From Dehalococcoidia bacterium (GTDB lineage Bacteria; Chloroflexota; Dehalococcoidia; Lucifugimonadales; UBA3495), in contig OZ244795.1 of assembly GCA_965219925.1 (NCBI GenBank), positions 4,165,049-4,229,048 on the forward strand: a stretch of 64,000 nucleotides of DNA, written 5' to 3'. The position numbers and the translations under genes were made by a program. The notes beneath the pieces are model-generated. The model saw nothing but the letters and a program-made list of their open reading frames with translations. It was not told the origin of the DNA and did no database searches. Below, in pieces: positions 26,942 to 59,540 of the stretch (position 1 is its first letter; every line of letters begins with the position of its first letter).

Positions 26942-28447
26942 TTGCCTGCTAATGACAATATCTATGACGTAATCGTGGTGGGAGCCGGAAACGCCGCGCT
27001 GTCTGCCGCCATCGCCGCCCGCGAGCAAACCGAGTCGGTTTTGGTCCTGGAAAAAGCGCCGGAGTATTTCCGAGGTGGGAACACCTACTTCACCGGCGGC
27101 ATCATCCGCTTCGCCTATAACGGCCTTGACGACATCAAGGGGCTGATACCCGACATGTCGGAAACCGAGGCCAACTCCATTGAGGTAGGGCAGTACACGG
27201 CCAACCAGTTTTATGACGACATGATGAGAGTTACCCACGGCCTGTCCGACCCGGAGCTGGCTGAGATTCTGGTGAGCCAATCGTATCCCACCATGAAATG
27301 GCTCCAGGAGCATGGCGTCCGCTTCGTGTTGTCCTTCGGACGTCAGGCGTTCCGCGACGGCGACAAATTCCGGTTCTGGGGCGGGTTGGTGGTCGAAGCG
27401 GTTGGGGCCGGCAAGGGGTTGTCTGATCAACAGTTCGACGTGTGCCAGGCGTTGGGCGTAGAAGTCCGTTATGCCACCGAGGGCATTTCGCTAATCCAGG
27501 ACCAGCGCGGAAATGTGGCTGGCCTTCGTGTCAAGGGACCGGAAGGTTTCGAGGATCTGGCGGCTCGCACGGTGGTGTTGGCGGCCGGCGGTTTCGAGGC
27601 CAATGCCGAGATGCGCTGCCGGTATCTTGGTCCCGGCTGGGAAACCGTCAAGGTACGCGGCATCCCGTACAATACCGGCGACGGCATCCGCATGGCGCTG
27701 GACATAGGCGCGCAATCTTACGGGCACTGGTCATCGTGCCACGCCGTGGCCTGGGACATGAATGCTCCCACCTTTGGCGACCGCACGGTAACCGAACTGT
27801 TCCAAAAGCACTCGTATCCCTTCGGCCTGATGGTAAACCTCGACGGTGAGCGCTTCCTGGACGAGGGCGCCGACTTTCGCAACTACACCTACGTAACCTA
27901 CGGACGGGCGCTGATGGATCAGCCCCAGGGTCTGGCATTCCAGATTTTCGATGAGAAGGTGAAGCACCTGCTGCGCGACGAATACTGGATTCCCCAGGCA
28001 ACCACCGCCGAGGCCAATACCATCGAGGAACTGGCGCGGCTGCTGGACATCGATCCAGTTGGCCTGGTGCGCACGGTCGAGGAGTACAACGCCTCGGTTC
28101 GCACCGACATTCCATACAACGCCACCGTGAAGGACGGACGCTGCACGGAGGGCCTGGAGGTCAACAAAACCAACTGGGCCGAAACGCTGGATACCCCGCC
28201 GTATCGCGGGTGGGCGGTAACCACGGGCATCACGTTTACCTTCGGCGGCGTGAAGGTGAACAACCGGGGACAGGTGGTGACCAACGCTCAGGAACCGATC
28301 CCGGGTCTCTATGCGGCCGGTGAAATGGTGGGCGGGCTGTTCTACCACAACTACCCCGGCGGCAGCGGCCTGAGCGCCGGTATGGTGTTCGGACGGCTGG
28401 CCGGCGACAGCGCCGGCACGGACGCGCTGGTGGCGAAAGACGTGTAG
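26942..28447 (+). CDS. FAD-binding dehydrogenase (TcuA / fumarate-reductase flavoprotein-like)
   Basis: YDVIVVGAGNAALSAAIAARE, FRGGNTYFTGG, VVLAAGGFEAN and GLYAAGEMVGGLFYHNYPGGSGL. Confidence 0.85.
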   Translation: MPANDNIYDVIVVGAGNAALSAAIAAREQTESVLVLEKAPEYFRGGNTYFTGGIIRFAYNGLDDIKGLIPDMSETEANSIEVGQYTANQFYDDMMRVTHGLSDPELAEILVSQSYPTMKWLQEHGVRFVLSFGRQAFRDGDKFRFWGGLVVEAVGAGKGLSDQQFDVCQALGVEVRYATEGISLIQDQRGNVAGLRVKGPEGFEDLAARTVVLAAGGFEANAEMRCRYLGPGWETVKVRGIPYNTGDGIRMALDIGAQSYGHWSSCHAVAWDMNAPTFGDRTVTELFQKHSYPFGLMVNLDGERFLDEGADFRNYTYVTYGRALMDQPQGLAFQIFDEKVKHLLRDEYWIPQATTAEANTIEELARLLDIDPVGLVRTVEEYNASVRTDIPYNATVKDGRCTEGLEVNKTNWAETLDTPPYRGWAVTTGITFTFGGVKVNNRGQVVTNAQEPIPGLYAAGEMVGGLFYHNYPGGSGLSAGMVFGRLAGDSAGTDALVAKDV

Positions 28448-28450
28448 GCC
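28361..28450 (+). repeat. direct repeat copy 1 (the 3' end of the FAD dehydrogenase gene)
   Basis: ggcagcggcctgagcgccggtatggtgttcggacggctggccggcgacagcgccggcacggacgcgctggtggcgaaagacgtgtaggc recurs at 28943 with 9 mismatches in 89 nt. Confidence 0.9.
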
Positions 28451-28510
28451 GGTGACGGCTACTGCAGGGAGGAACTCGGAACAACCATCTAATTTTGCCC
28501 GATTGTCATA

Positions 28511-28924
28511 ATGGGAAACAGCGATGACAATCGGTCTTGGTGGCGATTCTTCGATGGCTCGGCGTCGGTTAGCGTCGGTATGCTGGTCGCAGTTGCTTTC
28601 AGATACTGCGGGTTCTGCGACGACATACCGATATTGGGCTTCATTAATGGGCTGACCCGTGATGACGACGGCGTAATAATCGTCGCTACTCTGCTGCTGT
28701 TCCCCACCACGGCGGCGCTATACGGAGGTTTGAAGATGTTCTTTGCGGCCAAAGAAGCGGTGGAAAAGAAGGCTCGCGAGCGGGGTCGGCGGGAGGGTCG
28801 GCAAGAAGGCCGGCAGGAGGGCCGGCAGGAAATGCGTGAGCGGATCATGCGCATACTGGCGGAGCGCGGTACGCCAGTAACACAGGAGGAACTGGCCCAA
28901 GCCCTGGCCGGCGACATCGATTAG
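28511..28924 (+). CDS. hypothetical membrane protein with an EGRQ-repeat C-terminal region
   Basis: 137 aa with two hydrophobic segments, then ERGRREGRQEGRQEGRQEMRERIMRIL. It lies exactly between the two direct repeats. Confidence 0.5.
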   Translation: MGNSDDNRSWWRFFDGSASVSVGMLVAVAFRYCGFCDDIPILGFINGLTRDDDGVIIVATLLLFPTTAALYGGLKMFFAAKEAVEKKARERGRREGRQEGRQEGRQEMRERIMRILAERGTPVTQEELAQALAGDID

Positions 28925-28942
28925 GCGCGGCACGCTCCAAGT

Positions 28943-29031
28943 GGCAGCGGCCTGTGCGTCGGCATGGTGTTCGGACGGCTGGCCGGCAACAGCGCCGGCG
29001 CGGACGGGCTGGCGACGAAAGATGTGTAGGC
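28943..29031 (+). repeat. direct repeat copy 2 (orphan copy of the dehydrogenase 3' end, frame and stop retained)
   Basis: Would encode GSGLCVGMVFGRLAGNSAGADGLATKDV-stop, against GSGLSAGMVFGRLAGDSAGTDALVAKDV-stop in the intact gene. Confidence 0.9.
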
Positions 29032-29221
29032 AGGCCGGGACGGTTCGCCGTGTCAGACTACGTTGCACCGGACAGAGTGAACCGCCGGCAATCATTGCCG
29101 GTAAAATGGGCCGTGTAGCAAGTGTATGCACATTAACTTGCAATTTATACCATCTAACATACAGTTTTGATGCGCTTTTAGTTTACGAAGATCGCATCGT
29201 GGGGGCTACGTTTGCGCGCGA

Positions 29222-29259: not shown

Positions 29260-29278
29260 GCGAGTGTACGATAACAGC

Positions 29279-30475: not shown

Positions 30476-30521
30476 GAACTGCGCAGCGCACCACAATCGT
30501 TCGCAAAATTGAGGACTTGCA

Positions 30522-30806
30522 ATGGATACCCACGCCGACACTAACCAAGACGAGGCGGTGGTTCGATTCCACTGTGATATGTGCAAGGTATCGCACATTG
30601 ACAGCGACCAATACCCTGTGTGGGTTTGCTACTGCTGCGACAGTCCACTATGCCCTATGTTCGATTATGCGTGTGTCAGTTGCACCCAGGAAGCCTGCGA
30701 CAATTGTTGCCAGGCTTGCCAGGAAGACGATTGCGACGCAGTTACCTGCTTTTCCTGCGTAGAGTCGCACCTGCAAAGCAACCATTCTTTGGTGGAAGTC
30801 TGCTGA
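30522..30806 (+). CDS. Cys-rich small protein (multiple CxxC pairs, putative zinc-binding)
   Basis: 94 aa with many CxxC pairs: HCDMCKV, CYCCDSPLCP, CVSCTQEACDNCCQACQEDDCDAVTCFSC. Confidence 0.5.
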   Translation: MDTHADTNQDEAVVRFHCDMCKVSHIDSDQYPVWVCYCCDSPLCPMFDYACVSCTQEACDNCCQACQEDDCDAVTCFSCVESHLQSNHSLVEVC

Positions 30807-31862: not shown

Positions 31863-32073
31863 CTCACACGTACCCACTTTGTCAAACCAAACCAGCCTAC
31901 TGTCATCGCCAGTAGCGCCCACTCCCACCTGTCATTGCGAGGAGCGCAGCGACGTGGCAATCTCGTTGAGGTTGAGTAGACGTCGGGTAACCATCATTGC
32001 TGCGGCGACGAGATTGCCAACCCCCGCATCGAGTACGGGGTCGCAATGACAGATTACAGTGTGTACGCGTGAG
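31863..32073. repeat. MITE-like ~210-bp element with 22-bp terminal inverted motif CTCACRCGTACCCACTTTGTCA
   Basis: Left end ctcacacgtacccactttgtca; internal gtcattgcgaggagc...ggcaatctcgttgagg...cgacgagattgcc hairpin; a degenerate right end closing in gtacgcgtgag at 32073. Confidence 0.7.
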
Positions 32074-35958: not shown

Positions 35959-36222
35959 TGTCATTGCGAGCGCAGTGTGCGGGTACGCCCCTCACCCCCG
36001 GCCCCTCTCCCGCCGGGAGAGGGGAGAAAATGCGCCGGGGGCCAAAATCTGTCATTGCGACCCCGTACTTGATACGGGGGTGGCAATCTCGTCGGCGTAG
36101 CAATGGTGGTTTGCCGACGTGTGTTCAACCTCAACGAGATTGCCACGTGGTTCGACAGGCTCACCATGAGCGGTTGCGCTCCTCGCAGTGACAGGTGGGG
36201 CTGGGCGCTCCTCGCAATGACA
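35959..36222. repeat. mosaic repeat block upstream of the terminase block
   Basis: tgtcattgcgag...cccctctcccgccgggagagggg...gtcattgcgaccccgtacttgatacggggg...ggcaatctcgtcg...caacgagattgccacgtggttcgacaggctcaccatgagcgg...ctcctcgcaatgac. Confidence 0.8.
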
Positions 36223-36336: not shown

Positions 36337-36576
36337 GTGCTGAATTGCCGACGATGCCAGGGTATGACCCTGCTGGAACTGGCCCGGCTGGGCCGAGGAG
36401 ACCACACGGTATTCCGCTGCCGGACGTGTGGGTTCCTGTTCAGTCCTCCGGACACCGACCTACGGGGACACCACGGGGTGGACGTGCTACCATCCGCCCC
36501 GCCCCGGAAATCTGTCGAACTGCGGGTTAGCCGAGTCAGGATGCCAGGCGATGACCGAACCACGCCGTTGCGTTAG
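36337..36576 (+). CDS. zinc-ribbon small protein translationally coupled to the large terminase
   Basis: CRRCQG...FRCRTCGF gives two CxxC pairs. The GTG start follows a GAGG RBS. The stop overlaps the TerL GTG (TAGTG at 36574-36578). Confidence 0.45.
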   Translation: MLNCRRCQGMTLLELARLGRGDHTVFRCRTCGFLFSPPDTDLRGHHGVDVLPSAPPRKSVELRVSRVRMPGDDRTTPLR

Positions 36577-37955
36577 TGGCTCCCCGGGGCCCTACCGAAG
36601 CATCCGCCACTCGCTCCGAGACCCAACCGCCGGTTCCCCTGGACCCGGAAGACTTCGCCAGCCAGGTGCTGGGCATAAACCTGTGGTCGAAACAGCGGGA
36701 GGTGCTGCGAGCGGTGGCCTGCCACCGGCGAGTGGCAGTGAAGTCGGGCAACGGGTTGGGCAAAGATTTTACCGCTGCCGTGGCAGTGTTGTGGTACCTG
36801 CATCAACACGACCCTGCCATTGTGCTCAGCACCGCTCCCACCTTCCGGCAGGTGCGGCATGTCCTGTGGCGTCAAATACGGGGACTATACCGCCGGGCGT
36901 CGGGCGCTGTGGGGGGCGAACTGTTGGACACGCGCCTGGAACTGGCCGGGGACCGTTATGCTCTGGGCCTTTCGTCCACCGGCGCCGACCAGTTTCAGGG
37001 GTTTCACTGCCAGAATATGTTCATCGTGGTGGACGAAGCCGGCGGGGTCAGCGAACCCATCTACGAGGCCATCGACGCAATCATGACTTCGGCCAATCCG
37101 CGCCTGCTGCTCATCGGCAATCCAACCACGCCGTCCGGGGCGTTCCACCGGGCGTTTTACCAGGAGAGCGGCATCTACGAAACGATCACCATATCGGCGC
37201 TGGAATCGCCCAACGTGGTGGCTGGCGCCGTGGTGATTCCGGGATTGACGACCGCCGAATGGGTGGCCGAGCGCCGGGCGGTTTGGGGTCAGGACAGCCC
37301 GGTGTACCGGGCGCGCATCCTGGGGGAGTTTCCCGACCGGGCGGAGGACTCGTTGTTCAGCGTTTCTGACATCGAAGCGGCGGTCATGCCGACGGATGCC
37401 CCCGGGTATCGCGACGTCGCAGGACGGGAACCGGTGATGATCGGGGTGGATGTGGCCCGATACGGCAGCGACCGGAGCGTAGTGTTGGTGAGACAGGGCG
37501 ACGTAGTGCAGGATATTCAGGTGTATCCCCGGCTCGACACCATGGAGTTGGTGGGACGCGTCATCACGACGGTGCGCGAACGTACCCCCGAGCTGGTGAA
37601 CGTGGATGAAGTGGGACTTGGCGCCGGCGTGCTGGATCGCCTGCGGGAGTTGGGAATCCAGGCCCGCGGCGTGAACGGAGCGGCGCGCCCGTTTCTTGAC
37701 TCTATCTGCGGCAACCTGCGTGCCGAGGGTTACTGGTCGCTGCGGGAAAGATTCCAGAACCGCCGCATTCGCATACCCAGAGACGCAGAACTGATGGCTG
37801 AATTGGCGGCGTTGCGCTACCGGATCAACAGCAGTGGCAAGGTGATGATTGAGAGCAAGGAAACCATCAGAGGACGCGGTCTCCCGTCACCGGACAAAGC
37901 CGACGCCCTGATGCTGGCATTTCTGAAGGATGTCCCGCCGGTTGCGCTCTTGTGA
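36576..37955 (+). CDS. phage terminase large subunit
   Basis: P-loop-like KSGNGLGKDFTAAVAVLWYL, Walker B MFIVVDEAGGV, and a C-terminal nuclease-like GVDVARYGSDRSV. The portal gene follows. Confidence 0.85.
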   Translation: MAPRGPTEASATRSETQPPVPLDPEDFASQVLGINLWSKQREVLRAVACHRRVAVKSGNGLGKDFTAAVAVLWYLHQHDPAIVLSTAPTFRQVRHVLWRQIRGLYRRASGAVGGELLDTRLELAGDRYALGLSSTGADQFQGFHCQNMFIVVDEAGGVSEPIYEAIDAIMTSANPRLLLIGNPTTPSGAFHRAFYQESGIYETITISALESPNVVAGAVVIPGLTTAEWVAERRAVWGQDSPVYRARILGEFPDRAEDSLFSVSDIEAAVMPTDAPGYRDVAGREPVMIGVDVARYGSDRSVVLVRQGDVVQDIQVYPRLDTMELVGRVITTVRERTPELVNVDEVGLGAGVLDRLRELGIQARGVNGAARPFLDSICGNLRAEGYWSLRERFQNRRIRIPRDAELMAELAALRYRINSSGKVMIESKETIRGRGLPSPDKADALMLAFLKDVPPVALL

Positions 37956-38058
37956 CCGTAACAGGACCGGGCTTCAAGTGAACCCTCTGAGCCAGGGATC
38001 AGGACACCCGGGAACAATTCTCAACGAGGTTACTTACTCATGATGAGGTTACTTACCC

Positions 38059-46141: not shown

Positions 46142-46241
46142 GCAGATGAGCGTGTGCCATTTGAGACGCTAAATGGGCCATGCGCGACCCTTTGAGGTCA
46201 TTAGGCTGGACATCCGCCACGTACCGCTATCCCCCTAGTGG

Positions 46242-46697: not shown

Positions 46698-46703
46698 ATC
46701 GCG

Positions 46704-47081: not shown

Positions 47082-47305
47082 TGGGCCAATAGTTCGTAGA
47101 GGTGGCGGTGTTTCTCGACGCTGTCCCGGTAGTAGGCCATTACCTCAGGGAGAACACGCTCCCGCTTGCCGGTTTCAATATACAGCCGCATCGCATCTTC
47201 CAGGACGGCTTGAAAATAACGGCCCTGTTCGTTGGCTATTGCGCGCATCTCGGCCAGCAATTCAGGAGAGGCCTGGCTGGAAAATTTCTCACGCTGTGCG
47301 ACCAT
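47078..47305 (-). CDS. ribbon-helix-helix-type antitoxin
   Basis: 75 aa. Reads KFSSQASPELLAEMRAIANEQGRYFQAVLEDAMRLYI. Has a 4-nt overlap with doc. Confidence 0.65.
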   Translation of the reverse strand: MVAQREKFSSQASPELLAEMRAIANEQGRYFQAVLEDAMRLYIETGKRERVLPEVMAYYRDSVEKHRHLYELLAQ

Positions 47306-47409
47306 TTCAAATTCCTCGCCTAATCAGATCCCTTGCCTAGTGTGTGGGGTCAGGCTTAGCCATTGTGAATTGAGGTGTCAAGATTGATCTTGATAGGTTG
47401 GTGTTCCGG

Positions 47410-47766
47410 CTACTTCAGCGACCCCACTACTGGTATTAACTGCTGGTTGTAGGGGTCAACGGCGAGGAGGACGCCTTCCAGCGTGTAGGCGCCCAGCAGG
47501 GGGAGCGTTCCTTCCTCGCCGAAGATTACCCAGGTAACGGTTTCAATCCCTTCCACTTTGGCGTTGGCCTGTGCCATATCCAATTGCATTTGCTCGCCGC
47601 CGGCGTACTCGAAAGTCGCCCGCTTTGTTGGATGAATGCCCAACCCGTCCAGAATGGCGCGAGGGATTACCGTCGTCGTGGCGCCGGTGTCCGCCATCAC
47701 TTCAATATCTTCAAAATGCTCGGCGCCCAGGTTGCCAATCTGGATGGTAATGCTGAAAGTGCCCAT
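47410..47766 (-). CDS. retropepsin-like aspartyl protease (118 aa)
   Basis: Active-site motif MADTGATTTVIP. Only the last 118 codons of the 252-codon ORF-track entry are plausible. Confidence 0.8.
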   Translation of the reverse strand: MGTFSITIQIGNLGAEHFEDIEVMADTGATTTVIPRAILDGLGIHPTKRATFEYAGGEQMQLDMAQANAKVEGIETVTWVIFGEEGTLPLLGAYTLEGVLLAVDPYNQQLIPVVGSLK

Positions 47767-49776: not shown

Positions 49777-50217
49777 ATGTCACCTCGATATACAAACAGC
49801 CGCAGGACAACCGTTGAACAAACGGTGCGATTCTATCGAATAAGCTTAGGTAAAAATGACGATGGGGCACCAGGCACGTATGATGTTCGCCATGCACTGG
49901 AACAAATTCAGTCCTTACCTTGCGATCTGAACGCCGCGGTACCTCGCTACTTACCCGATGGCGAGGGTAACGTTCTATTCACGCACCTTCGCAATGCCGG
50001 GCATAAAACAGAACCCCATCGGGAAGCCGAGACTGATTTTGAGTTATGGCTTTCAAATCGAACTAATTTGCCTCAGATTGAGAGTGGAGGCAACATAAGC
50101 GACCTTTTAATTGCTGATAGCGAGGGTCTAGCGACCGCCATATACGCGGTATTCTTCCCACCGAATATCATAGGAACCGTTTCCGATGGCAGAGATACTA
50201 AACTAAAGCCAAGGTGA
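49777..50217 (+). CDS. hypothetical protein A (3' end altered by the MITE)
   Basis: 146 aa in low-GC DNA with no motif recognised. The last 6 residues and the stop come from the MITE. Precise excision would give a ...GRDSPTR-stop ending. Confidence 0.45.
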   Translation: MSPRYTNSRRTTVEQTVRFYRISLGKNDDGAPGTYDVRHALEQIQSLPCDLNAAVPRYLPDGEGNVLFTHLRNAGHKTEPHREAETDFELWLSNRTNLPQIESGGNISDLLIADSEGLATAIYAVFFPPNIIGTVSDGRDTKLKPR

Positions 50218-50349
50218 AATGCGCAGATGGTGGGGGTCAAACGACGGAGCCGGGTCGTTCTCCGAGTACGGATGAGAGGGATTCACGGACTTAACCCAGC
50301 TGATCATCATCGCCACTTAAATGTACATCCCACCTTGGCTTTAGTTTAG
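50198..50349 (+). mobile_element. 152-bp MITE, copy 2
   Basis: Identical to 44624-44775. Flanked by a perfect GATA direct repeat (50194-50197 and 50350-50353). Confidence 0.9.
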
Positions 50350-51435: not shown

Positions 51436-52209
51436 TTGCTCATGATAACTAGGAATACTTGGACCCGCCAGCAATTGCTGGTGGCGTTCGCCATGTATTG
51501 CCGGATGCCGTTTGGTAAGATTAGCTCGCGGCATCCTGATATTATTCGGGTCGCGACGGATATAGGCCGGACGCCGGCGGCTCTTTCGATGAAGATGGGG
51601 AACATCGCCAGCCTTGACCCGGCGATTACTTCAACGGGGCGCAGTGGGTTGCGGGCCGCTTCGGCCAATGATAGGGCGATGTGGGAAGAGATGAACAGTG
51701 ATTGGGAGCGGTTTGCGGTTGAGTGCGAACAAGCTCTGATGGAAATAGAGGCCATTCCAGAACCTGTCGACGACGGAATACCAGATTATGATGTTTTACC
51801 CGTTGGCGAAGACCGGATTGTGCAAGCGACTACCCGCATGGGGCAGAGATTCTTCCGGGCAGCGGTCTTGAGCGCATACAATGAACAATGCTGCATCACC
51901 GGGCTTACAATTCCCAAGTTGCTCATAGCAAGCCATATTGTCCCTTGGCGTCATGATATCGCCAACAGGACGAATCCCCAGAACGGCCTATTGCTGTCTG
52001 CGCTGCACGATAGGGCATTCGATGCTGGCTTACTTACCATCAATGACGATATGACCGTCCGAGTGTCCCGTGAGAGTATCGTAGCCGCTGGCGAATTTTT
52101 CTCAACTGCTATTGGTCATTACGACGGCCGGCCGATTTCTCTACCGGAAAAATTTGCGCCCGATCAAGAGTTTCTCGCCTACCATCGGGAGCGCATCTTC
52201 CAAGGGTGA
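51436..52209 (+). CDS. HNH endonuclease (HNH_2-type, restriction-like)
   Basis: CCITGL...LIASHIVPW...NPQNGLLLSALHDRAFDAGLLTI. The N-terminal region reads GRTPAALSMKMGNIASLDP. Confidence 0.8.
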   Translation: MLMITRNTWTRQQLLVAFAMYCRMPFGKISSRHPDIIRVATDIGRTPAALSMKMGNIASLDPAITSTGRSGLRAASANDRAMWEEMNSDWERFAVECEQALMEIEAIPEPVDDGIPDYDVLPVGEDRIVQATTRMGQRFFRAAVLSAYNEQCCITGLTIPKLLIASHIVPWRHDIANRTNPQNGLLLSALHDRAFDAGLLTINDDMTVRVSRESIVAAGEFFSTAIGHYDGRPISLPEKFAPDQEFLAYHRERIFQG

Positions 52210-52216
52210 GTAGCAG

Positions 52217-52540
52217 TTGACGACGCGCGTCCGCAAGTTGCCCGGCGCACCCGACTTGGTGCTCCGACGCTACAATGCTGTCGTGTTGGTGCAGGGTTGC
52301 TTCTGGCACGGGCACGATTGCCGCAAGGGGCAGAGTCAGCCGGCTACCAATCAGGAATTTTGGAATCGGAAACTGGACGGCAATCTTGCCCGCGACGCTG
52401 CCAATCGCACCAAACTCCGGGCACTAGGCTGGGCGGTGTTCGTAGTTTGGGAATGCCGCTTACGTGAAGATACTGATGCTTTGCTAACGCACCTGCGGAT
52501 AATGCGGTCCAGCAGCAGCTGGGACGGCGGCGGCGGGTAG
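52217..52540 (+). CDS. vsr: very-short-patch-repair endonuclease, N-terminally truncated
   Basis: GAPDLVL, VQGCFWHGHDC, FWNRKLDGNLARD and GWAVFVVWEC. A stop 4 nt upstream of the TTG start prevents any longer N-terminus. Confidence 0.7.
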   Translation: MTTRVRKLPGAPDLVLRRYNAVVLVQGCFWHGHDCRKGQSQPATNQEFWNRKLDGNLARDAANRTKLRALGWAVFVVWECRLREDTDALLTHLRIMRSSSSWDGGGG

Positions 52541-53566: not shown

Positions 53567-54820
53567 ATGCTGATTGGCCATTTTACCGAACAGCCCTGGC
53601 AGGATGAAAGTTCCGGGCTTATGGGCACCCAGAGCGTTGACCTGGGTATTTCCAACAGCCACTACCGTCCCGAGGTCGGCGCCCAGCTCTACAACCGCTA
53701 CCTCGATGAGAAAGTTTACGCCGAGGAAATGGGCTTCGACGCCGTGATGCTCAACGAGCACCACTCCACACCCTTCTGTATGCAGGGTGTTACCAACGTC
53801 GGCGCCTCCATCCTGGCCCGCATCACCAACAAGGTCAAGATCATCATCCTCGGCAACGTGCTGCCCATTTGGGACGACCCGCTGTGGTTGGCCGAGCAGC
53901 TGTCCATGATCGACATGATCTCCCACGGCCGGCTGGTGTCCGGATTCGTGCGCGGCGGCGGTCGTGAGAGCTGGTCCCATAACTCTCCGCCCCACTTCAA
54001 CCGCGAACGATTTGAAGAGGCCCACGACCTCATCATCAAGGCCTGGACCGATCCCGGCCCGTTCCGCTGGGAGGGCAAGCACTTCCACTACCGGTACGTG
54101 AACCCCTGGGCGCGCCCACTGCAGGAGCCGCACCCGCAGGTCTGGATCCCGTCCACCGTGTCGGTTGAGACCGTGAGGTGGTGCGCCGAGAAGCGCTATC
54201 CGCTGGTGCTGCTGGCCACCAAGCTGGAACCCACCCGCGAAGCCTTCCAGCTCTACCACGACACCGCCGCCGAGCATGGCTACGAGTCTGGCACTCAGAA
54301 CGTGGCCTACCTGTGGAAGGTGCACGTCGACGAGACCGAAGAGAAGGCGGAAGAAGTCGCGCGGAAATACCTGTCCGGCGTCAGCAACCCCTTCCTGGCC
54401 GGCAACGAGGGCGGCATCAACCCCGCCATCATGAGCCTGCCCGGCCACACGTCCCGCAACTCCCGCCGCCTGTCCGCCTCGGCCTTCGGTCCCGCCGGAC
54501 GCTTCGGCGCCAACCGGCGACCCTACGAAGACCAGGTTGCCGATAGCACCATCATCGCCGGAACCCCCAAGACGGTTATCCCCAAGATCCGCGAGGTTCT
54601 GGAATACCTGCGGCCGGGCTCTGTGTTCTTCTGGGACGGCGACGGCGCCATGACCCACGATGACCAGATGCGCAGCCTGCGCCTGATGGGTGAGGAAGTC
54701 ATCCCCGCCGTCCGTGAGATGGGCAAGGAGTTGGAGCTCTACTCCCCATTCGAAGTGGACGCCAGGACCAACCGGCCCATCGTGGACGCCTCCGCAACGG
54801 CTACCACTACAGCGGACTAG
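53567..54820 (+). CDS. LLM-class (luciferase-like) flavin-dependent oxidoreductase
   Basis: FDAVMLNEHHSTPF...GRLVSGFVRGGG. Paralog of 40034-41152. AGGAGAGG RBS upstream. Confidence 0.88.
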   Translation: MLIGHFTEQPWQDESSGLMGTQSVDLGISNSHYRPEVGAQLYNRYLDEKVYAEEMGFDAVMLNEHHSTPFCMQGVTNVGASILARITNKVKIIILGNVLPIWDDPLWLAEQLSMIDMISHGRLVSGFVRGGGRESWSHNSPPHFNRERFEEAHDLIIKAWTDPGPFRWEGKHFHYRYVNPWARPLQEPHPQVWIPSTVSVETVRWCAEKRYPLVLLATKLEPTREAFQLYHDTAAEHGYESGTQNVAYLWKVHVDETEEKAEEVARKYLSGVSNPFLAGNEGGINPAIMSLPGHTSRNSRRLSASAFGPAGRFGANRRPYEDQVADSTIIAGTPKTVIPKIREVLEYLRPGSVFFWDGDGAMTHDDQMRSLRLMGEEVIPAVREMGKELELYSPFEVDARTNRPIVDASATATTTAD

Positions 54821-54918
54821 GGCGGTATTACGCCTGGAATCCGGCCTTTGCCGGAATGGCCGGGGAATATAGGGGCGAGTTTGATACTCGCCCCTATGCA
54901 ATGGGCAGGCAGTGCGAT

Positions 54919-55881
54919 ATGACGGCTGATCACACTGGCCATGACCGTGGCCACGACCATCGGAGCTCCAGCAAGCGCGCGCTGCTGATTGTGCTGGTTC
55001 TGGTGGCCAGCCACATGACGGTTGAAATAGTCGGCGGCATTCTTTCGGGCAGCCTGGGCCTGCTGGCTCATGCCGCCCATATGCTCACCGACGCCGTTGC
55101 CCTGGGCCTGGCGCTGTTCGCAGTCTGGATTGCGGGACGCCCGGCAAGCATCACGCGCACCTATGGCTTCCACCGCACCGAAGTGCTGGTCGTGATGTTC
55201 AACGCTCTGGCCCTGTGGGTGCTGGCCAGCTGGATTTTCTACGAAGCTTACCGGCGGTTGAGCGAACACGGGTCAGCGCACAATCACGAAGTGGAAGGCG
55301 CGACAATGCTGATTGTCGCCGGCATCGGGCTGGCTATTAACACCGTAGCCGCCTGGATACTCTACCGGTCGTCACGGCACAGCATTAACGTCGAAGGGGC
55401 CTTCTGGCACATCATGGCCGATCTGATGGGCTCCGTCGTGGTGGTGGTGTCCGGCGTCCTCGTGCTGCTTTTCGACTGGGACCTGGTGGACCCCATTCTC
55501 AGTATGCTGATCGCCGCGCTAATTCTGGTCAGTTCCTGCCGTCTGGCCATCAAGGTGTTCCGCGTGCTGCTGGAGGCAACCCCGCCCCACCTGGATATGT
55601 ATCGTCTGTGCAGCGCGCTGGAGGATGTGGAAGGCGTAACCCTGGTTCACGACGTTCACGCCTGGTCTATCACCACCGGCTACGACGCTCTCACCGCCCA
55701 TGTGCTCATTGACTCCGATTACCGGGGAGAACTTGAGCCGCTGTTGCGTCGCCTGCGGCAGATTGCCTACCAGGAATTTGGCATTCACCATATCACCATA
55801 CAAATGGAGCAGTCGGTGGCGGATTGCACCGAAAACCACCACGTTGGGCACCTGGCTGCCAGGTCGCGCGCCGAAGTATGA
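54919..55881 (+). CDS. cation diffusion facilitator (CzcD/ZitB-like) transporter
   Basis: His-rich N-terminus, LLAHAAHMLTDA, HIMADLMGS and the C-terminal HDVHAWSITTGYDALTAHV. Confidence 0.88.
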   Translation: MTADHTGHDRGHDHRSSSKRALLIVLVLVASHMTVEIVGGILSGSLGLLAHAAHMLTDAVALGLALFAVWIAGRPASITRTYGFHRTEVLVVMFNALALWVLASWIFYEAYRRLSEHGSAHNHEVEGATMLIVAGIGLAINTVAAWILYRSSRHSINVEGAFWHIMADLMGSVVVVVSGVLVLLFDWDLVDPILSMLIAALILVSSCRLAIKVFRVLLEATPPHLDMYRLCSALEDVEGVTLVHDVHAWSITTGYDALTAHVLIDSDYRGELEPLLRRLRQIAYQEFGIHHITIQMEQSVADCTENHHVGHLAARSRAEV

Positions 55882-56837
55882 CACCGACTCGATACGGCGA
55901 CCACGATGGCTCTGCCCACGACCACCGGGAGGCCGGGCGGCGACGCCTGCTGATTGCGCTGGCGCTGATTTCCGGCTATATGGGCGTTGAGATAGCAGCG
56001 GGCATTCTTTCGGGCAGTCTGGCCCTGTTGGCCGACGCCGCCCATATGCTCACCGACGCGGCCGCCATCGCATTGGCTCTTTTCGCGATGTGGATTGCCA
56101 ACCGGCCAGCCTCCATTGAGCGCACTTTCGGATATTACCGCACTGAGGTGCTGGCCGCCCTGTTCAATGTCGTCAGTCTGTGGGTGGTTGCCGGCTGGAT
56201 TTTCTTTGAGGCTTACCACCGCTTTCGGGAAGTCCCGGAGGTGGCTGGCGGCATCGTACTGGTGGCCGGCTGTGCGGGGCTGGTCGTCAACCTGATTGCC
56301 GTCTGGATACTGCGCCGTTCCGCCGGGCACAGCCTCAACGTTGAAGGCGCCTTCCGACACGTAATGGCGGACTTGATGGGGTCAATCGGCGTGGTTATTT
56401 CCGGCGTTCTGACCCTGGCTTTTGGCTGGTGGATTGCCGACCCCATCCTGGGAGTGCTTATCGGAGCGTTGATCCTGGCCGGTTCCTGGCGTTTGGTCGG
56501 CAAGGTCTTTCGGGTTCTGTTGGAAGGCACGCCGGCGCACCTGGATATGGGCCGGCTCTGCAGCGAGCTGGAAAGCGTGACGGGCGTGACTCTGGTTCAC
56601 GATATTCACGCCTGGACTATTACCTCCGGCTATGAGTCGCTCACCGCCCACGTACTGGTTGACCTCGATTATCCGGGAGAGCTGGAAACCCTGCGCCGCC
56701 AATTGCAGCAGATTGCTTACAAGGACTTTGGCATCGCCCACATTACCATACAGATTGAGCAATCACTGGAAGGCTGCACCGAACGCCACCACTTTGACCA
56801 TCTGCTAGCGCCGGATGCGGGCCGGGTGATTGAATAG
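55878..56837 (+). CDS. cation diffusion facilitator transporter (tandem paralog)
   Basis: Same motifs (LLADAAHMLTDA, HVMADLMGS, HDIHAWTITSGYESLTAHV). Its start overlaps the upstream stop (ATGA). Confidence 0.88.
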   Translation: MTPTRYGDHDGSAHDHREAGRRRLLIALALISGYMGVEIAAGILSGSLALLADAAHMLTDAAAIALALFAMWIANRPASIERTFGYYRTEVLAALFNVVSLWVVAGWIFFEAYHRFREVPEVAGGIVLVAGCAGLVVNLIAVWILRRSAGHSLNVEGAFRHVMADLMGSIGVVISGVLTLAFGWWIADPILGVLIGALILAGSWRLVGKVFRVLLEGTPAHLDMGRLCSELESVTGVTLVHDIHAWTITSGYESLTAHVLVDLDYPGELETLRRQLQQIAYKDFGIAHITIQIEQSLEGCTERHHFDHLLAPDAGRVIE

Positions 56838-57380
56838 CTGGGCCAGCGGCAGGCTGAAGTCCGGGAACAGTGGCGTAGTCAGCGTATCCTCCGACGTAAG
56901 CGCCGCCCGCTCCCTATACGCTCCATCCACTAGTTCCAGCACGGTCAGCGTATCCGCAACTGCGTCGATGATCCAGTATTCCGGTATTCCCCTGGCCTCG
57001 TAGTGCCGTCGTTTGGTGACCAGATCGTGATTCCGGTCTGACGAAAGCACTTCCACCACGATGTCTGGCGCACCGTCTATGACGGTGCGGCCAATGATGC
57101 CGGTGCGATCAGAGCGGATCACGGTGATGTCCGGCCCAACGGCGGTATTGCTCGATAGGACTACGCCGGGTCCGTGCAAGACTATGCCCAGGCCAGACTC
57201 TAAAATTTGTAGGCCCAGATACATCGCCAAGACGGTCGCGAGAAACTGGTGGTCGGGTATCGGGAACGCGGCCATGTACACTATTCCGTCGATGAGTTCG
57301 CAGCGCGGCTCCATTTCGGGCAAGGCCAGGAACTCCTCAAGGGTCATACGCGTGCCGGCCTGGATGTTGGTGGTGGTCAT
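56805..57380 (-). CDS. Uma2-family putative endonuclease (allele 1)
   Basis: MTLEEFLALPEMEPRCELIDG...APDIVVEVLSS...GIPEYWIID. Its last 11 codons overlap the last 11 codons of the CDF gene in antisense. Confidence 0.85.
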   Translation of the reverse strand: MTTTNIQAGTRMTLEEFLALPEMEPRCELIDGIVYMAAFPIPDHQFLATVLAMYLGLQILESGLGIVLHGPGVVLSSNTAVGPDITVIRSDRTGIIGRTVIDGAPDIVVEVLSSDRNHDLVTKRRHYEARGIPEYWIIDAVADTLTVLELVDGAYRERAALTSEDTLTTPLFPDFSLPLAQLFNHPARIRR

Positions 57381-57448
57381 GGTAATTGCCCCACTCCGTG
57401 AAACTTGCCGGATTGTACCATTCTCACCTGTGCCATCACCCCACTGTC

Positions 57449-57704
57449 ACCCGCCGGCCTTCGTTGCTGGACTGGCGGATGGCGTCGATGAAGTGGTGCA
57501 GGCCGACGGCGTGGTCGAAATCGGGCGCTGCGTCCTCGCCGTTGGAAGTTCCACGGATGGAAGCGGCGAATTTGCTGTACAGTTGCCCCACGTTTAAGCC
57601 TCGCTGGCTGGCATTTCGGGAGCCAGGATCAGTTCCTCGGAGGGGACGAGGTCTTGCAAGTCGTTGCCGCCGTGGGCGCCGCGGATGTTTACTTCCTTCA
57701 ACTG
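57449..57704 (-). pseudogene. orphan copy of the 3' end of the Gfo/Idh/MocA oxidoreductase gene
   Basis: Aligns to 58446-58701 with a few percent mismatch by eye. Confidence 0.85.
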
Positions 57705-57815
57705 GCGCTGATCCTGACCAGTTCCTGGCGTTTGGTCGGCAAGGTCTTTCGGGTTCTGCTGGAAGGCTGCACCAAACGCCACTACTTTGACCATCTGCTA
57801 GCGCCGGAGACGCGC
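57705..57815 (+). pseudogene. orphan copy of the 3' end of the second CDF gene, with a 246-bp internal deletion
   Basis: Matches 56464-56528 joined to 56767-56837. The junction lies within the 8-nt microhomology tggaaggc. Confidence 0.85.
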
Positions 57816-58373
57816 CGGGAGTTCAAATATCCGGGCCAGAGGCAGGCTTAACTCCGGGAACAGTGGGGTGGTCAGCGTGTCAGAGGCCGTGAATACCGCC
57901 CGTTCCACGTACTCGCCATCATCGTTCAACGCCAGCGCTGTGAGTGTATCGGAGTCGCCGTCGAGGATCCAGTATTCGGGAATACCCGCGGCTTCATACC
58001 GCCTTCGTTTGGTTACCAAGTCGTCGGTTCGATTCGATGAAAGAACTTCTACCACAATGTCGGGAGCGCCGTAAATGCGGACATCGTGGATGATGTCCGC
58101 ACGTTCCGCGCGAATCACTACAATGTCCGGCGCAACCGTTACATTTTCCCCGAGCACTACGTCAACCGGCAATAGGACCAGCGCTGATTCATCATCAAGT
58201 TGTTGCTCCAGGCCGCTATACAATCGGCCAGCCTTGATTTGGTGCCTGGGTGTGGGTTGCGGCATTAAGTACAACTCTCCTTCATGAAGCTCGCAACGCT
58301 GCTCCATTTCGGGCAAGGCCAGGAACTCCTCAAGAGTCATACGTGTGCCTGACTTGATGTTAATCGTCGTCAT
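57798..58373 (-). CDS. Uma2-family putative endonuclease (allele 2)
   Basis: 191 aa, colinear with allele 1. The ends are nearly identical (MTLEEFLALPEME, APDIVVEVLSS, GIPEYWI, DTLTTPLFP) while the centre is divergent. Confidence 0.85.
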   Translation of the reverse strand: MTTINIKSGTRMTLEEFLALPEMEQRCELHEGELYLMPQPTPRHQIKAGRLYSGLEQQLDDESALVLLPVDVVLGENVTVAPDIVVIRAERADIIHDVRIYGAPDIVVEVLSSNRTDDLVTKRRRYEAAGIPEYWILDGDSDTLTALALNDDGEYVERAVFTASDTLTTPLFPELSLPLARIFELPARLRR

Positions 58374-58433
58374 TGTGACTTCCCTCAGTACCTCAACTGG
58401 GTGCATTGTAGCAGTGCATCAGCCGCCGGTTGG

Positions 58434-59540
58434 TTAGGCAACGGCTACCCGCCGTCCCTCGCTGCTGGACTGGCGGATGGCGTCGATAAACCGGTGCAGG
58501 CCGACGGCGTGGTCGAAATCGGGCACTGCGTCCTCGCCGTTGGAAGTTCCACGGATGGAAGCGGCGAATTTGCTGTACAGTTGCCCCACGTTGTAAGCCT
58601 CGCTGGCCGGCATCTCGGGAGCCAGGATTAATTCCTCGGAGGGGACGAGGTCCTGCAGGTCGTTGCCGCCGCGGGCACCGCGGATGTTTACTTCCTTCAA
58701 CTGCGGAGAGTCCACCGACACCGCGACCAGCGTGCCCTCGTCGCCGTATATCTCCATGCGATAGCCGCTGCCGGCCCACGCCGTGTTGCCAATCTGCACC
58801 GAGGCGACGCCGCCGCTCTGCAGATTGCCGCTCACCAGAATGTTATCGGGTGAGGTTACCGGCAGGTCGTTGCCCGTGTCGGTCTCGTGCCAGGTGGTGG
58901 CCTGGGTGCTGACAACCGTGGATACGTCGGCAAACTCACCCACCACGCTCATCAGGGCGTCGATGGTGTGGCCGCAGGCGATGGTAAGGGTATGTGCGCC
59001 CGATTCGTCCTCGCGCTGCCAGGTGCGCCCCGAGTCGCGGGACAATACGCCCTCGCGCATCAGGCGGACGTGGCAGGTCATTACCCGGCCCACATATCCG
59101 TCGGCGATCAGGTTGCGCAGGTGGGCAACCGCCGGGTTGGCGCGGGCCTGCAATCCCACCGCCGTCTTGACCCCCTGCCGGCGGGCTTCATCTGCCATCT
59201 CGATGGCCTCGGCGGTGGTGCGACCCAGCGGCCATTCGGTGAAAACGTGCTTGCCGGCCTTCAGTGCGGCCATCGTCGGCTCGTAGTGGCGTGGGACCCG
59301 CAGGGAGATGGTGGCGGCGTCAAGATTGCCGTCGGCCAGCATCCTGTTGTAGTCGTCGTAGGCGGCGCCGGCGTTGAAGGCTGCCCGCGCCTCGTCGGCG
59401 GATTCCTGGCGAGTTGTGCAGACGGCGGCGAGGTCAAAGTCGGGGTGAGCGGCCAGCGCCGGCAGGTGAGCGCGGGGCGACCAACCCTGGTGGATGTTGG
59501 CTCCAATTAGACCGATGCGGATAGGCTGTCGTGAAGTCAT
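58434..59540 (-). CDS. Gfo/Idh/MocA-family oxidoreductase
   Basis: N-terminal Rossmann IRIGLIGANIHQGW, plus EWPLG and a C-terminal alpha/beta domain. Confidence 0.88.
   Translation of the reverse strand: MTSRQPIRIGLIGANIHQGWSPRAHLPALAAHPDFDLAAVCTTRQESADEARAAFNAGAAYDDYNRMLADGNLDAATISLRVPRHYEPTMAALKAGKHVFTEWPLGRTTAEAIEMADEARRQGVKTAVGLQARANPAVAHLRNLIADGYVGRVMTCHVRLMREGVLSRDSGRTWQREDESGAHTLTIACGHTIDALMSVVGEFADVSTVVSTQATTWHETDTGNDLPVTSPDNILVSGNLQSGGVASVQIGNTAWAGSGYRMEIYGDEGTLVAVSVDSPQLKEVNIRGARGGNDLQDLVPSEELILAPEMPASEAYNVGQLYSKFAASIRGTSNGEDAVPDFDHAVGLHRFIDAIRQSSSEGRRVAVA

Follow-up and report, generated by a model that had tools for sequence, protein, structure and literature searches.

Diverged copies of gene ends border accessory cassettes in a Chloroflexota sponge symbiont and look like the product of ordinary recombination between related strains

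The category known as insertion with long target duplication was established from restriction-modification genes (Nobusato et al. 2000; Furuta, Abe & Kobayashi 2010, PMC2853133). It is read as duplication of the target during insertion, by a mechanism given as unknown, and the cases come mostly from naturally transformable species (PMC2853133). The locus analysed here lies in a window of 64,000 nucleotides (the whole stretch of DNA under study) from an uncultured Chloroflexota sponge symbiont. It resembles long target duplication in that small defence-type units without a mobility gene lie between direct repeats of tens to ∼420 bp, a related genome has one repeat copy at its empty site, and the repeats often touch the 3′ end of a gene (PMC2853133). 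It differs in its cargo (a toxin–antitoxin (TA) pair, Uma2 and small unknown genes), in its uncultured host, and in that the two repeat copies differ allelically and are partly mosaic, suggesting that the homologous arms had different origins.

Two further systems share parts of this structure. In the C-terminal displacement of Rhs/CDI and T6SS effector-immunity modules (Jackson et al. 2009; Kirchberger et al. 2017, PMC5361080) a new module likewise recombines in at a conserved upstream anchor and shifts the old 3′ end and its partner downstream, giving strings of orphan 3′ fragments. In those loci the displaced 3′ end encodes the gene's own variable toxin domain, whereas the duplicated 3′ end here belongs to an unrelated housekeeping gene that borders the slot and is still conserved. 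Campbell-type (single-crossover) additive integration and, in natural transformation, homology-facilitated illegitimate recombination (HFIR) (de Vries & Wackernagel 2002; Prudhomme et al. 2002; Meier & Wackernagel 2003, all as cited in PMC5361080) combine a homologous anchor with a non-homologous junction, as does our locus; integration of a circle duplicates the homology, and neither process requires an element-encoded enzyme. Those are laboratory phenomena, whereas the evidence here is entirely comparative.

Variable gene cassettes between conserved flanking genes, as found here, also characterize the minimal mobile elements of Neisseria, reportedly described by Saunders and Snyder in 2002 and said to rely on homologous recombination in the flanks. 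To our knowledge these cassettes are replaced and not stacked, and we know of no description of orphan flank copies among them; our locus, in contrast, has both stacking and orphan flank copies. Prophages such as phage 21 or e14 insert in a protein-coding gene, icd, and bring a diverged replacement for its 3′ end. There too the functional end comes from the insert, and the original end, pushed aside, persists as a diverged direct repeat, but those are large elements with an integrase and a fixed att core, none of which was found here.

Along the window, variable slots alternate with conserved metabolic genes (FAD oxidoreductase, alpha/beta hydrolase, TPP enzyme, luciferase-like monooxygenase and GFO/MocA oxidoreductase). 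The slots contain small genes of a defence or addiction type: a Doc TA system, Uma2, an HNH nuclease, a methylase, a DGQHR protein, ATPases and the 137-aa family. An earlier note on this DNA had reported four diverged direct-repeat pairs at gene 3′ ends. All four were recovered by self-BLAST and a repeat search of the window (E 1e-27 to 1e-171), with identities somewhat higher than the note had estimated (81% and 84.5% for the second and third). In each of cases 1–4 the stop codon is at, or within ∼15 nt of, the end of the intact copy. Stops and frameshifts mark the orphan copies as pseudogenes, apart from an HNH orphan whose frame is open. The DNA that the repeats bracket is missing from the same site in relatives (L156 for case 1, an L007-type genome for case 2 and OZ244251 for case 4), in keeping with the note's description of insertions. 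One further pair, 152 nt and 100% identical (44624–44775 and 50198–50349), was rejected as a gene-end copy; it is a MITE with 19-bp terminal inverted repeats.

In case 1, the FAD-binding oxidoreductase (26942–28447, plus strand; Pfam FAD_binding_2, 3e-43), the ‘dehydrogenase’ of the earlier note, is the conserved left flank of variable slot A and has orthologues in L156–L235. Its last 87 nt and the following 5 nt (28361–28452, plus strand) are repeated at 28943–29034 on the same strand with the in-frame stop retained (89% identical over 92 nt, E 7e-28). Between the copies lies a 137-aa gene (28511–28924, plus strand) without a Pfam domain; its family has 615 database matches, with several copies in some related genomes, and other members adjoin a minE fragment and a repeat of an acyl-CoA dehydrogenase end region. 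Two sister strains, L236 and L237, carry both the gene and the orphan, and differ from the window in the sequence past the orphan stop. L156 supplies the empty site: there the homologue of window 29035–29169 comes right after the FAD stop codon. Only 2/9 differences between the FAD copies fall at codon position 3, i.e. there is no position-3 bias, and none of the alleles of relatives that were compared was closer to the orphan; case 1 alone would therefore also fit duplication followed by decay.

Cases 2 and 3 had been counted among ‘four independent cases’, and are better described as one composite array. The case 2 cargo is a doc gene (Fic/Doc; 46704–47081, minus strand) and a putative 75-aa antitoxin without a family match (47078–47305, minus strand). 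The doc gene has an in-frame TAG at 46956–46958; position 46958 is G in runs X5, X7, X8 and X10, giving CAG. Beside the pair is an intact clan AA (DTGA) aspartic protease (47410–47766, minus strand), the last 138 nt of which recur in an orphan at 46554–46697 (minus strand) that contains a TAA stop and has lost 1 nt (46554–46690 versus 47410–47547, 81% over 138 nt, E 5e-30). The sequence past this orphan's stop also varies, in the same four runs. For case 3, the last 116 nt of the intact thiamine-pyrophosphate (TPP) enzyme (47796–49463, minus strand) recur at 46235–46349 (minus strand) in a copy that lacks 1 nt and in which TAC has become a TAA stop (46235–46349 versus 47796–47911, 84.5% over 116 nt, E 6e-29). 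A fifth orphan, missed by the earlier note, sits between the TPP and protease orphans: the 3′ end (52085–52222) of an intact HNH restriction-type nuclease (51436–52209, plus strand; Pfam HNH_2; PADLOC HNH, 6e-116) is repeated at 46396–46533 (plus strand, 79% identical). In L007 the protease and HNH genes converge, and the block 46397–46688, comprising the HNH and protease orphans, is collinear with their junction; this L007-type junction is the empty site for case 2. The earlier note had placed case 2 inside a 1.5-kb case 3 insert. Because the sister genome OZ253540 has a complete second HNH gene and another TPP 5′ fragment in the corresponding position, case 3 is probably instead the remnant of a larger stacked haplotype, a copy of ∼6 kb.

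Case 4 occupies slot D, whose conserved flank is the intact GFO/IDH/MocA oxidoreductase (58434–59540, minus strand). Here two Uma2 alleles are stacked, allele a at 56805–57380 and allele b, the stacked second one, at 57798–58406 (both minus strand; 61% amino acid identity). Between them are an orphan GFO 3′ end (57436–57704, minus strand) with a 1-nt deletion and an orphan fragment (57705–57830, plus strand) of the second of two tandem cation-diffusion-facilitator (CDF) genes (55824–56837, plus strand), whose 3′ part is the intact CDF copy. The whole is a tandem unit of ∼995 bp (56766–57704 versus 57759–58703, E 3e-171), in which the GFO 3′ ends are 93–95% identical over 256 nt and the Uma2 portions 73–80%. 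The CDF orphan is not the simple 3′ end that had been supposed: 57705–57767 matches 56466–56528 (94% identical), the remainder is the CDF 3′ end, and 237 nt have been lost between two TGGAAGGC repeats. The GFO and CDF orphans meet at a blunt join, 57704|57705. In OZ244251, the empty site, GFO is followed directly by the luciferase-like gene, with neither Uma2 nor CDF. Across the window and its relatives there are at least four classes of stacked Uma2 alleles, ∼60% apart at the amino acid level, in genome-specific arrangements (b then a in the window, b′ then a in OZ253540, a then c in OZ244805), and the GFO orphans between them measure 256, 91 and 73 nt. Allele a shares 88% identity with the downstream Uma2 of OZ253540 and 84% with the first one of OZ244805.

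Relatives show independent events at these gene ends too, with VapBC, Uma2 or a coiled-coil gene as cargo and with different repeat lengths. Orphans of the FAD 3′ end are also present in L165, L170 and L172, ranging from 57 to 100 nt across events; hydrolase 3′ orphans surround VapBC-like pairs in L003, L006 and L008; and a repeat pair in L042 brackets a Uma2-like ORF. Orphans of 5′ ends occur as well: OZ253540 has a TPP 5′ block of 617 nt and OZ244805 a luciferase-like one of 275 nt. The 3′ to 5′ orphan count was 21:7, from crude ORF calls at loci picked around three genes with known 3′ orphans.

The differences between orphan and intact copies favour codon position 3: 17/25 for HNH, 11/18 for TPP, 13/22 for GFO and 11/25 for the protease. 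The window total is 54/99 (p=1.5e-5) and a curated total that includes relatives is 108/182 (p=8e-13). Since the share in true orthologues is 75–87%, about half of the divergence is of the kind that accumulates in functional alleles. The TPP pair is moreover a reciprocal mosaic over 116 nt, with one donor-like allele, L035. The intact copy matches the sisters L001 and L002 at 98.5% over its left 66 nt and at only 82% over its right 51 nt, the fall coming ∼50 nt before the stop (Fisher p=0.002). In the orphan the left (upstream) 66 nt are 94% like L035, the allele of a different species, and <79% identical to the sisters, while for the stop-proximal 50 nt the sister genomes are closest (86%). 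Plain duplication followed by decay is therefore rejected by the position-3 bias together with the TPP mosaic, and the claim that the copies are homeologous holds, their divergence being largely allelic. Compared with foreign alleles, half of the TPP orphan is L035-like, the last 79 nt of the GFO orphan are nearer the L089 allele than the intact copy is, and the FAD orphan has no closer foreign allele.

We consider it reasonably probable that homeologous DNA has been added to the slots, not swapped into them, by a homologous crossover combined with an illegitimate join. The direct observations behind this are the repeat structures, the empty sites, the allelic-type divergence, one mosaic breakpoint, the recurrence of the signature in related genomes, and the lack of both a recombinase and an att motif. 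Slot content would pass between related strains and species of sponge symbionts by homologous recombination that uses the ends of the conserved genes on either side as anchors; usually the content would be replaced, and sometimes the incoming piece would be added instead. An additive event would involve one homologous crossover inside a gene end. On the opposite side the join would be non-homologous: a circularised fragment is closed (Campbell-type), or ends are joined illegitimately on the chromosome. The product would read intact gene, new cargo, orphan gene-end copy, old content. The route of DNA entry, any dependence on RecA, the choice between a circular and a linear substrate and any selective reason for adding instead of replacing are parts of the scheme that we infer. 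The earlier note had proposed single-crossover integration of circularised homeologous DNA. The homeologous part stands; a circle would be one route among several, as a one-ended homologous crossover with an illegitimate join, or tandem duplication with allelic replacement of one copy, yields the same structure. No circular form was seen, which counts against the additive reading. HFIR, in the 2002 work of de Vries and Wackernagel and of Prudhomme and colleagues, is said usually to delete recipient DNA and not to duplicate it, and this too was counted against the additive reading.

An unlikely competitor is that a spontaneous short tandem duplication came first, through an illegitimate sister-chromosome junction, and that one copy of cargo and flank was later overwritten with alleles of other strains, by ordinary homologous recombination, or was partly deleted. 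Tandems of 0.5–1.5 kb with high identity are indeed common in relatives (L031, 95.8%; L172, 96.7%; L239, 94.6%; L240, 92.7%), OZ253540 has a two-block duplication of ∼6 kb, and case 4 has an exact tandem geometry with one blunt junction. A plain tandem duplication could also have come first, one of its copies acquiring allelic differences afterwards through recombination or gene conversion. Against this, cargo such as the TA pair has no far-side paralogue, and case 1 has no second cargo copy, the empty-site sequence following directly after the orphan, so that an extra, precise deletion would be needed. As the end structures are otherwise identical, sequence by itself separates this route from additive integration only weakly.

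Long target duplication itself, in which a selfish defence or addiction unit would enter a break and staggered cuts with fill-in would duplicate the target, seems to us improbable. The inserts are shorter than 20 kb, lack a mobility gene and have repeats longer than 30 bp, one of them at the empty site, as in the published definition (PMC2853133); the cargo is nuclease, TA or methylase-like, and two of the repeats reported by Kobayashi and colleagues overlap a gene 3′ end, by 15 and 2 bp (PMC2853133). However, repeats that were initially identical predict no codon-position bias and no foreign-like segment, whereas a bias and an L035-like half of the TPP orphan are seen, and the inner boundary always falls at a gene end, which is where haplotype homology stops and not where staggered cuts would be expected.

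Very doubtful is a trans-acting site-specific system aimed at gene 3′ ends, with cassettes that bring a replacement 3′ end as some prophages do; a dedicated system of this kind had been offered as an alternative. The reuse of the same gene ends (FAD, GFO and hydrolase) across genomes and the ∼3:1 bias towards 3′ ends, a crude count, would suit it. Yet searches that included Pfam and PADLOC turned up no integrase or transposase within or close to any insert, as the earlier note had already remarked, and comparison of the junctions, the outer ones being blunt, found no common motif or core. Repeat length varies 3- to 4-fold at one gene end, the cargo families are unrelated to each other, and 5′-end orphans also occur.

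Short reads were checked as Logan unitigs from the source-sample runs X1 and X2. A unitig covering 57565–57750 spans the junction 57704|57705 with 0 mismatches, and unitigs cover the whole orphan array 46273–46775 with 0 mismatches at ∼100x, equal to the flank depth; related MAGs share the orphan structures in part. That a metagenome assembler joined co-existing strain haplotypes in series is thus barely credible: the sample does hold several related strains (unitig depths vary and there are minor alternative joints) and case 4 resembles two haplotypes end to end, but independent unitigs span the junctions at flank depth, the orphan stops and frameshifts would not be expected in any functional allele, and other MAGs and runs from other hosts contain these orphans too.

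If homeologous DNA is indeed added through one crossover and one illegitimate join, each orphan would be free to decay while staying usable as a homology anchor for later exchange, so that arrays such as the TPP, HNH and protease orphans or the Uma2 b-then-a stack could grow. The slots of this symbiont thus look like places where genes are gained from related strains by ordinary recombination, of a known and little-studied kind, and not like the work of a new mobile element.

The source organism is an uncultured SAR202-like Dehalococcoidia of marine sponges, and near-identical sequence was found in sponge-associated runs. Its TPP enzyme and GFO/MocA oxidoreductase share 97–99% protein identity with those of the closed MAGs OZ244251 and OZ253540, and 91–94% with those of OZ244805. 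Between 27 and 62 kb of the window, conserved metabolic genes alternate with short runs of small defence and addiction genes. The conserved genes encode an FAD oxidoreductase (26942–28447), an alpha/beta hydrolase adjoining tRNA-Gly (41686–42549), the TPP enzyme (47796–49463), a luciferase-like monooxygenase (53567–54820), the GFO/MocA oxidoreductase (58434–59540) and an aldo-keto reductase (61407–62435). The variable stretches between them, referred to here as slots, hold a gene for a 137-aa protein, a STAND ATPase, three Uma2 genes, a Type II methylase, a DGQHR/DpdB-like protein, Doc with a putative antitoxin, a clan-AA protease, an HNH nuclease (PADLOC HNH, 6e-116), a Vsr fragment, two CDF transporters and an AAA_15/21 ATPase.

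Several of these slot genes show features of their own. The Vsr fragment, an ORF directly 3′ of the HNH gene (52217–52540), matches the C-terminal part of Vsr only (profile positions 43–74 of 74) and is probably the remnant of a Dcm-Vsr cassette; the FAD slot of the related strain L236 holds an intact Dcm and Vsr pair. The CDF (cation efflux) genes are two tandem paralogues (54856–56837) with 69% nucleotide identity. Because just a few relatives have them (L081, L084, L089 and L111) and the sister genome OZ244251 lacks them, these transporters are themselves slot cargo. The AAA_15/AAA_21 (OLD/AbiEii-like) ATPase lies between the GFO gene and the aldo-keto reductase in a low-GC (0.51) segment (59676–61391), which is another variable slot since OZ253540 carries a different ∼1.5 kb there. 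A phage portal gene (Pfam Phage_portal, 4e-67) follows a 459-aa ORF with a weak AAA_30 match, possibly a terminase, at 36576–39363. The two are flanked by inverted copies of the dispersed intergenic repeat described below, with no further phage gene nearby, and may be what is left of a prophage, or else a GTA-like fragment.

The earlier note reported four gene ends repeated around inserted genes, and all four repeat pairs were recovered by a repeat search and sensitive self-BLAST (E 1e-27 to 1e-171). In each pair the intact copy is the gene's own end and the orphan is a diverged, broken spare copy of that end, with the cargo genes bracketed between the two. The FAD oxidoreductase end lies around the 137-aa gene (28511–28924), the aspartic (clan-AA) protease end around the doc/antitoxin pair (hereafter the TA pair), and the GFO and CDF ends around a second Uma2 gene; the TPP-enzyme end had been read as bracketing the protease together with the TA pair. 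The flanking direct repeats are 92–256 nt long and the inserts 0.5–1.5 kb. For all pairs, the intact copy ends at the stop codon or at most ∼15 nt past it and the variable content begins there, and the homology of the duplicated segment to the resident sequence stops where haplotypes differ. The outer junctions are blunt, with 0–1 nt of microhomology at 57704/57705 and 28942/28943.

The Uma2 arrangement is a tandem unit of ∼1 kb with a single blunt junction (57704/57705). Its first copy comprises the CDF2 3′ part, Uma2-a (56805–57380) and the orphan GFO 3′ end; its second comprises the orphan CDF fragment, Uma2-b (57798–58406) and the real GFO 3′ end. Identity is 93–95% in the flanks but only 73–80% in nucleotides, and 61% in protein, between Uma2-a and Uma2-b. 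The CDF orphan has since been shortened by 237 nt between two TGGAAGGC repeats. A fifth orphan had been overlooked: the HNH 3′ end is copied at 46396–46533, so that three orphan gene-ends (TPP, HNH and protease) form an array at 46235–46697.

For three of the inserts, relatives provide a site where the insert is missing. At locus L156, the FAD stop codon is followed immediately by the homologue of 29035–29169, the sequence past the window orphan, and L156 positions 7420–7646 align with the FAD orphan and the sequence downstream of it. Therefore, 28453–29034 (the cargo and one repeat) is extra in the window. In OZ244251, the GFO gene is followed by 118 nt and then the luciferase-like gene, with neither the Uma2 nor the CDF genes. 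At locus L007, the convergent protease/HNH junction is collinear with the orphan block 46397–46688, in which a protease end faces an HNH end; a junction of this type is the arrangement that would be expected before entry of the TA pair.

No clean empty site was found among the relatives for the TPP repeat. The earlier note had nested the TA insert within a 1.5-kb insert bracketed by TPP ends, a reading that OZ253540 makes less likely. Here the order is TPP, protease, TA pair, a short protease orphan, a full second HNH gene, 1.7 kb of different cargo and a TPP 5′ fragment. The second HNH gene is 90% identical to the first over 1049 nt, the second TPP 5′ fragment 94% identical over 617 nt, and the spacing between the two copies is ∼5.8–6.1 kb. 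The adjoining HNH and TPP orphans of the window can be derived from a stacked copy of the OZ253540 type by one internal deletion. For this reason a larger stacked haplotype, of which the TPP orphan would be a remnant, is more likely than a 1.5-kb insert around the TA insert with the orphan as its far edge. TPP followed by protease is also the common order in many relatives.

If the orphans were decaying local copies, the differences between the two members of a pair should be spread evenly over the three codon positions, with one third at position 3. The observed fractions at position 3 were 17/25 for the HNH pair, 11/18 for TPP, 13/22 for GFO, 11/25 for the protease and 2/9 for FAD, giving 54/99 for the window (p=1.5e-5 against one third). 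With well-aligned pairs from relatives added, the fraction was 108/182 (p=8e-13), a total curated to leave aside misaligned pairs (L006, L008) and pairs of uncertain frame (L023, L038, L042); taken singly, L133 had 19/24 and L031 14/14. Indels precluded this comparison for the tandem repeat of L240. True orthologues in these genomes have 75–87% of their differences at position 3. About half of the divergence is therefore of the type that functional genes build up, and decay accounts for the remainder.

The TPP repeat also has a mosaic structure. In its intact copy, identity to the sister genomes (L001 and L002) falls from 98.5% in the upstream 66 nt to only 82% in the last 51 nt (Fisher p=0.002). 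The upstream 66 nt of the orphan are 94% identical to the L035 allele, from another species, and <79% to the sisters, which are closest again over its last 50 nt (86%). These segments are short, and the reciprocal pattern is that expected from one crossover within the repeat, between a resident and a foreign gene end. A weaker tendency of this kind is seen in the GFO orphan, over its last 79 nt, and in the protease orphan; no mosaic pattern was seen for the FAD pair. A greater likeness of the orphan to foreign alleles than to the resident gene, which the earlier note had set as its own test, was found for TPP, in part for GFO, protease and HNH, and not for FAD. Locus L089 was considered as the single-copy form of one GFO haplotype and rejected: its 91% match is an effect of BLAST extension and its GFO end is 79% like the orphan overall, the last 79 nt alone being nearer to the orphan, at 90%.

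The most economical account of these alignments would be additive integration from a related strain. Incoming DNA would bring a gene end together with that strain's slot content and would recombine once inside the gene end; the far side would be closed without homology, either by prior circularisation and a Campbell-type crossover or by an illegitimate join on the chromosome. Content may be added rather than replaced through selection against loss of a resident addiction module, which is a reasonable idea. Such selection was proposed earlier for restriction-modification genes. A tandem duplication, one copy of which was later overwritten by allelic recombination, would yield the same final structure, but is less economical for the FAD insert, where the cargo is not duplicated. 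Plain tandem duplication followed by neutral decay is ruled out by the position 3 bias and the L035-like TPP segment; the FAD pair, taken alone, is compatible with it.

Additive integration by general recombination was also weighed against site-specific systems. As the earlier note had claimed, no integrase or transposase is present at the inserts: none was found among the slot genes in Pfam, NCBIfam and PADLOC searches, and the same searches gave no tyrosine or serine recombinase in or beside the inserts. No att-like core was shared by the junctions (best cross-junction score 13–15, against a null maximum of 11), and no hairpin or terminator-like structure was found at the boundaries. The lack of motif and structure, the blunt outer junctions, the varying orphan length and the unrelated cargo families together argue against a site-specific system and for general recombination, and we do not retain the alternative, offered earlier, of an unrecognised integration system targeting 3′ ends. 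An integrative element moved by an integrase was rejected because there is no recombinase, no fixed att core, and a repeat length that varies at one target. An integron cassette array was rejected for want of IntI and of a structured repeat common to the cassette boundaries.

An assembly artefact is likewise rejected. In short-read unitigs of the source sample, 57565–57750 and 46273–46775 are covered with 0 mismatches at ∼100×, equal to flank depth, and parts of the structures are common to other MAGs and to runs from other hosts. The orphans are also pseudogenic: the TPP orphan has a TAC to TAA change and a 1-nt deletion, the protease orphan a TAA stop and a 1-nt deletion, and the GFO orphan a 1-nt deletion. 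These defects are unlike any functional allele and so count against an artefact. A joint from 47466 back to 46649 (818 nt back), seen in four other runs (X5, X7, X8 and X10), was the one joint of this kind in the short unitigs; it was considered as an excised circle or tandem amplification and rejected, being an allelic version of the orphan protease end that joins doc at the same point and has other sequence past the stop. Low-depth unitig joints (4–11× versus ∼100×) from 46687 to 47602 and from 57687 to 58702 bypass the TA cassette and the Uma2-b unit, respectively. Minority strains with the unstacked arrangement may be their source, a hint only, as no more than 21–22 nt lie on one side of each joint. 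The doc gene (minus strand) carries an in-frame TAG at codon 44 (46956–46958), so the Doc toxin of the inserted TA pair is inactivated in the window strain; the same four runs, which represent related populations, have G at 46958, giving CAG.

Other repeats in the window are of different kinds. A 152-nt pair (44624–44775 and 50198–50349; 100% identical) was examined as a further gene-end repeat and rejected, since it is a MITE with perfect 19-bp terminal inverted repeats (CTAAACTAAAGCCAAGGTG ... CACCTTGGCTTTAGTTTAG) and the abutting ORFs (142 and 146 aa) are unrelated to each other. Each copy provides the stop codon of its abutting ORF, so both ORFs may be interrupted genes. A dispersed intergenic family of 110–180 nt, which looks REP- or MITE-like, occurs at 19419–19535, 20621–20768, 26736–26868, 31869–32055, 36046–36222, 39407–39585 and 41340–41496, in both orientations and once just upstream of tRNA-Gly. 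Its copies have nested inverted motifs (TGTCATTGCGA/TCGCAATGACA; GGCAATCTCGT/ACGAGATTGCC; GGCTCACCATGAGCGG).

Orphan gene-ends recur in relatives, with the same ends duplicated around other cargo. In L165, L170 and L172, FAD 3′ orphans separate two divergent alleles of a hypervariable coiled-coil gene. VapBC-like pairs are enclosed by hydrolase 3′ orphans in L003, L006 and L008, and a Uma2-like ORF by a repeat pair in L042. GFO 3′ orphans of 256, 91 and 73 nt part Uma2 allele classes in the window, OZ253540 and OZ244805; the class orders are b then a, b′ then a, and a then c, and the classes are ∼60% identical. FAD orphans range from 57 to 100 nt, so that repeat length varies at one gene end, as for GFO. 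Orphan 5′ ends also occur, including a 617-nt TPP block in OZ253540 and a 275-nt luciferase-like block in OZ244805. A count over 235 loci gave 21 3′-end and 7 5′-end orphans, and is indicative only, because the ORF calls were simple and the loci were picked around genes with known 3′ orphans.

Some orphans appear to have been reused. Strains L236 and L237 have the window's order of FAD, 137-aa gene and orphan at 95–96% identity, and past the stop of the FAD orphan the content differs: DUF4928, Dcm and Vsr in L236, other genes in L237 and the STAND ATPase in the window. The protease orphan of four runs from another host shares the outer doc junction, but over the 57 nt next to its stop it is like the intact allele, and other sequence lies past the stop. 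A later crossover inside the orphan would produce both patterns.

The 137-aa cargo beside FAD was found only in these near-identical strains and had no blastn or tblastn match in 80 species-level loci. Because L236 and L237 already carry the orphan, no donor-type single-copy arrangement was recovered. The protein itself had no match in Pfam, NCBIfam or PADLOC. Database searching gave 615 hits for its family (loci L236–L243 in our set). Some genomes of sponge Chloroflexota hold several members (three in OY282456), scattered among housekeeping genes and often beside local tandem duplications. The orphan-end signature is seen beside such members too: in L239, a minE fragment lies between two tandem copies of the family gene, and in L240 a 534-nt tandem repeat reaches into the 3′ end of the adjoining acyl-CoA dehydrogenase gene. 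In most relatives, the FAD slot holds the hypervariable coiled-coil gene, of 250–300 aa with heptad-like repeats (LTERVDQ...) and a conserved C-terminal domain, often as two alleles 40–62% identical (L170 7561–9489; L172 7585–9607). A Cys-rich gene of ∼115 aa follows, whose window homologue is at 30516–30791.

The kind of structure is already known; what is added here is allelic and mosaic evidence bearing on a mechanism left unresolved in earlier cases. Operational criteria for an ‘insertion with long target duplication’ were given by Furuta et al. 2010 (PMC2853133). The inserts resemble this class in being missing at the orthologous site of a relative (L156 for FAD, OZ244251 for Uma2 and the L007 type for the TA pair), in having repeats >30 bp with one copy aligning with the empty site (L156), and in being <20 kb with no mobility gene. 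They differ in cargo, which under those criteria includes both R and M homologues and here is Doc with its antitoxin, Uma2 or the 137-aa gene; the HNH nuclease and Type II methylase share the slots but fall outside the bracketed inserts. They differ also in that the repeats are not of one origin, as judged from the 54/99 bias, the L035-like TPP orphan and the breakpoint in the intact copy; the FAD pair alone is undecided in this respect. There are further parallels with Rhs ‘C-terminal displacement’ and with the orphan arrays at T6SS loci in Vibrio cholerae, where the proposed mechanism is homology-facilitated illegitimate recombination (PMC5361080). The window differs from those loci in that a housekeeping gene, as a bystander, supplies the duplicated end.

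The movement of small defence and addiction genes (TA pairs, lone nucleases) with no mobility gene is poorly understood, and ‘long target duplication’ insertions, described since 2000, are still without a mechanism. The present case has the advantage over older examples that many closed genomes of related, co-occurring symbionts are available, so that repeat copies can be traced to different alleles. The data suggest that the two repeat copies are homology arms from different sources, and that an arm once orphaned goes on serving as a recombination anchor. A more tentative and, on present evidence, rather doubtful extension is that orphan ends are reusable homology docks in an integrase-free, integron-like form of capture. 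Every addition would leave a spare anchor with which haplotypes arriving later recombine, and defence and addiction cassettes would so accumulate where conserved genes border the slots. Stacking may prevail over swapping if loss of a resident addiction module (TA or restriction-like nuclease) kills the recombinant. Were such docks general, restriction-modification insertions with ‘long target duplication’ would be products of homeologous single crossovers rather than target duplications. If the pattern holds genome-wide, an orphan gene-end beside its parent gene would be a practical annotation marker of recent gene gain, and uncultured, strain-rich symbiont populations would have a recombination-only route to defence islands.
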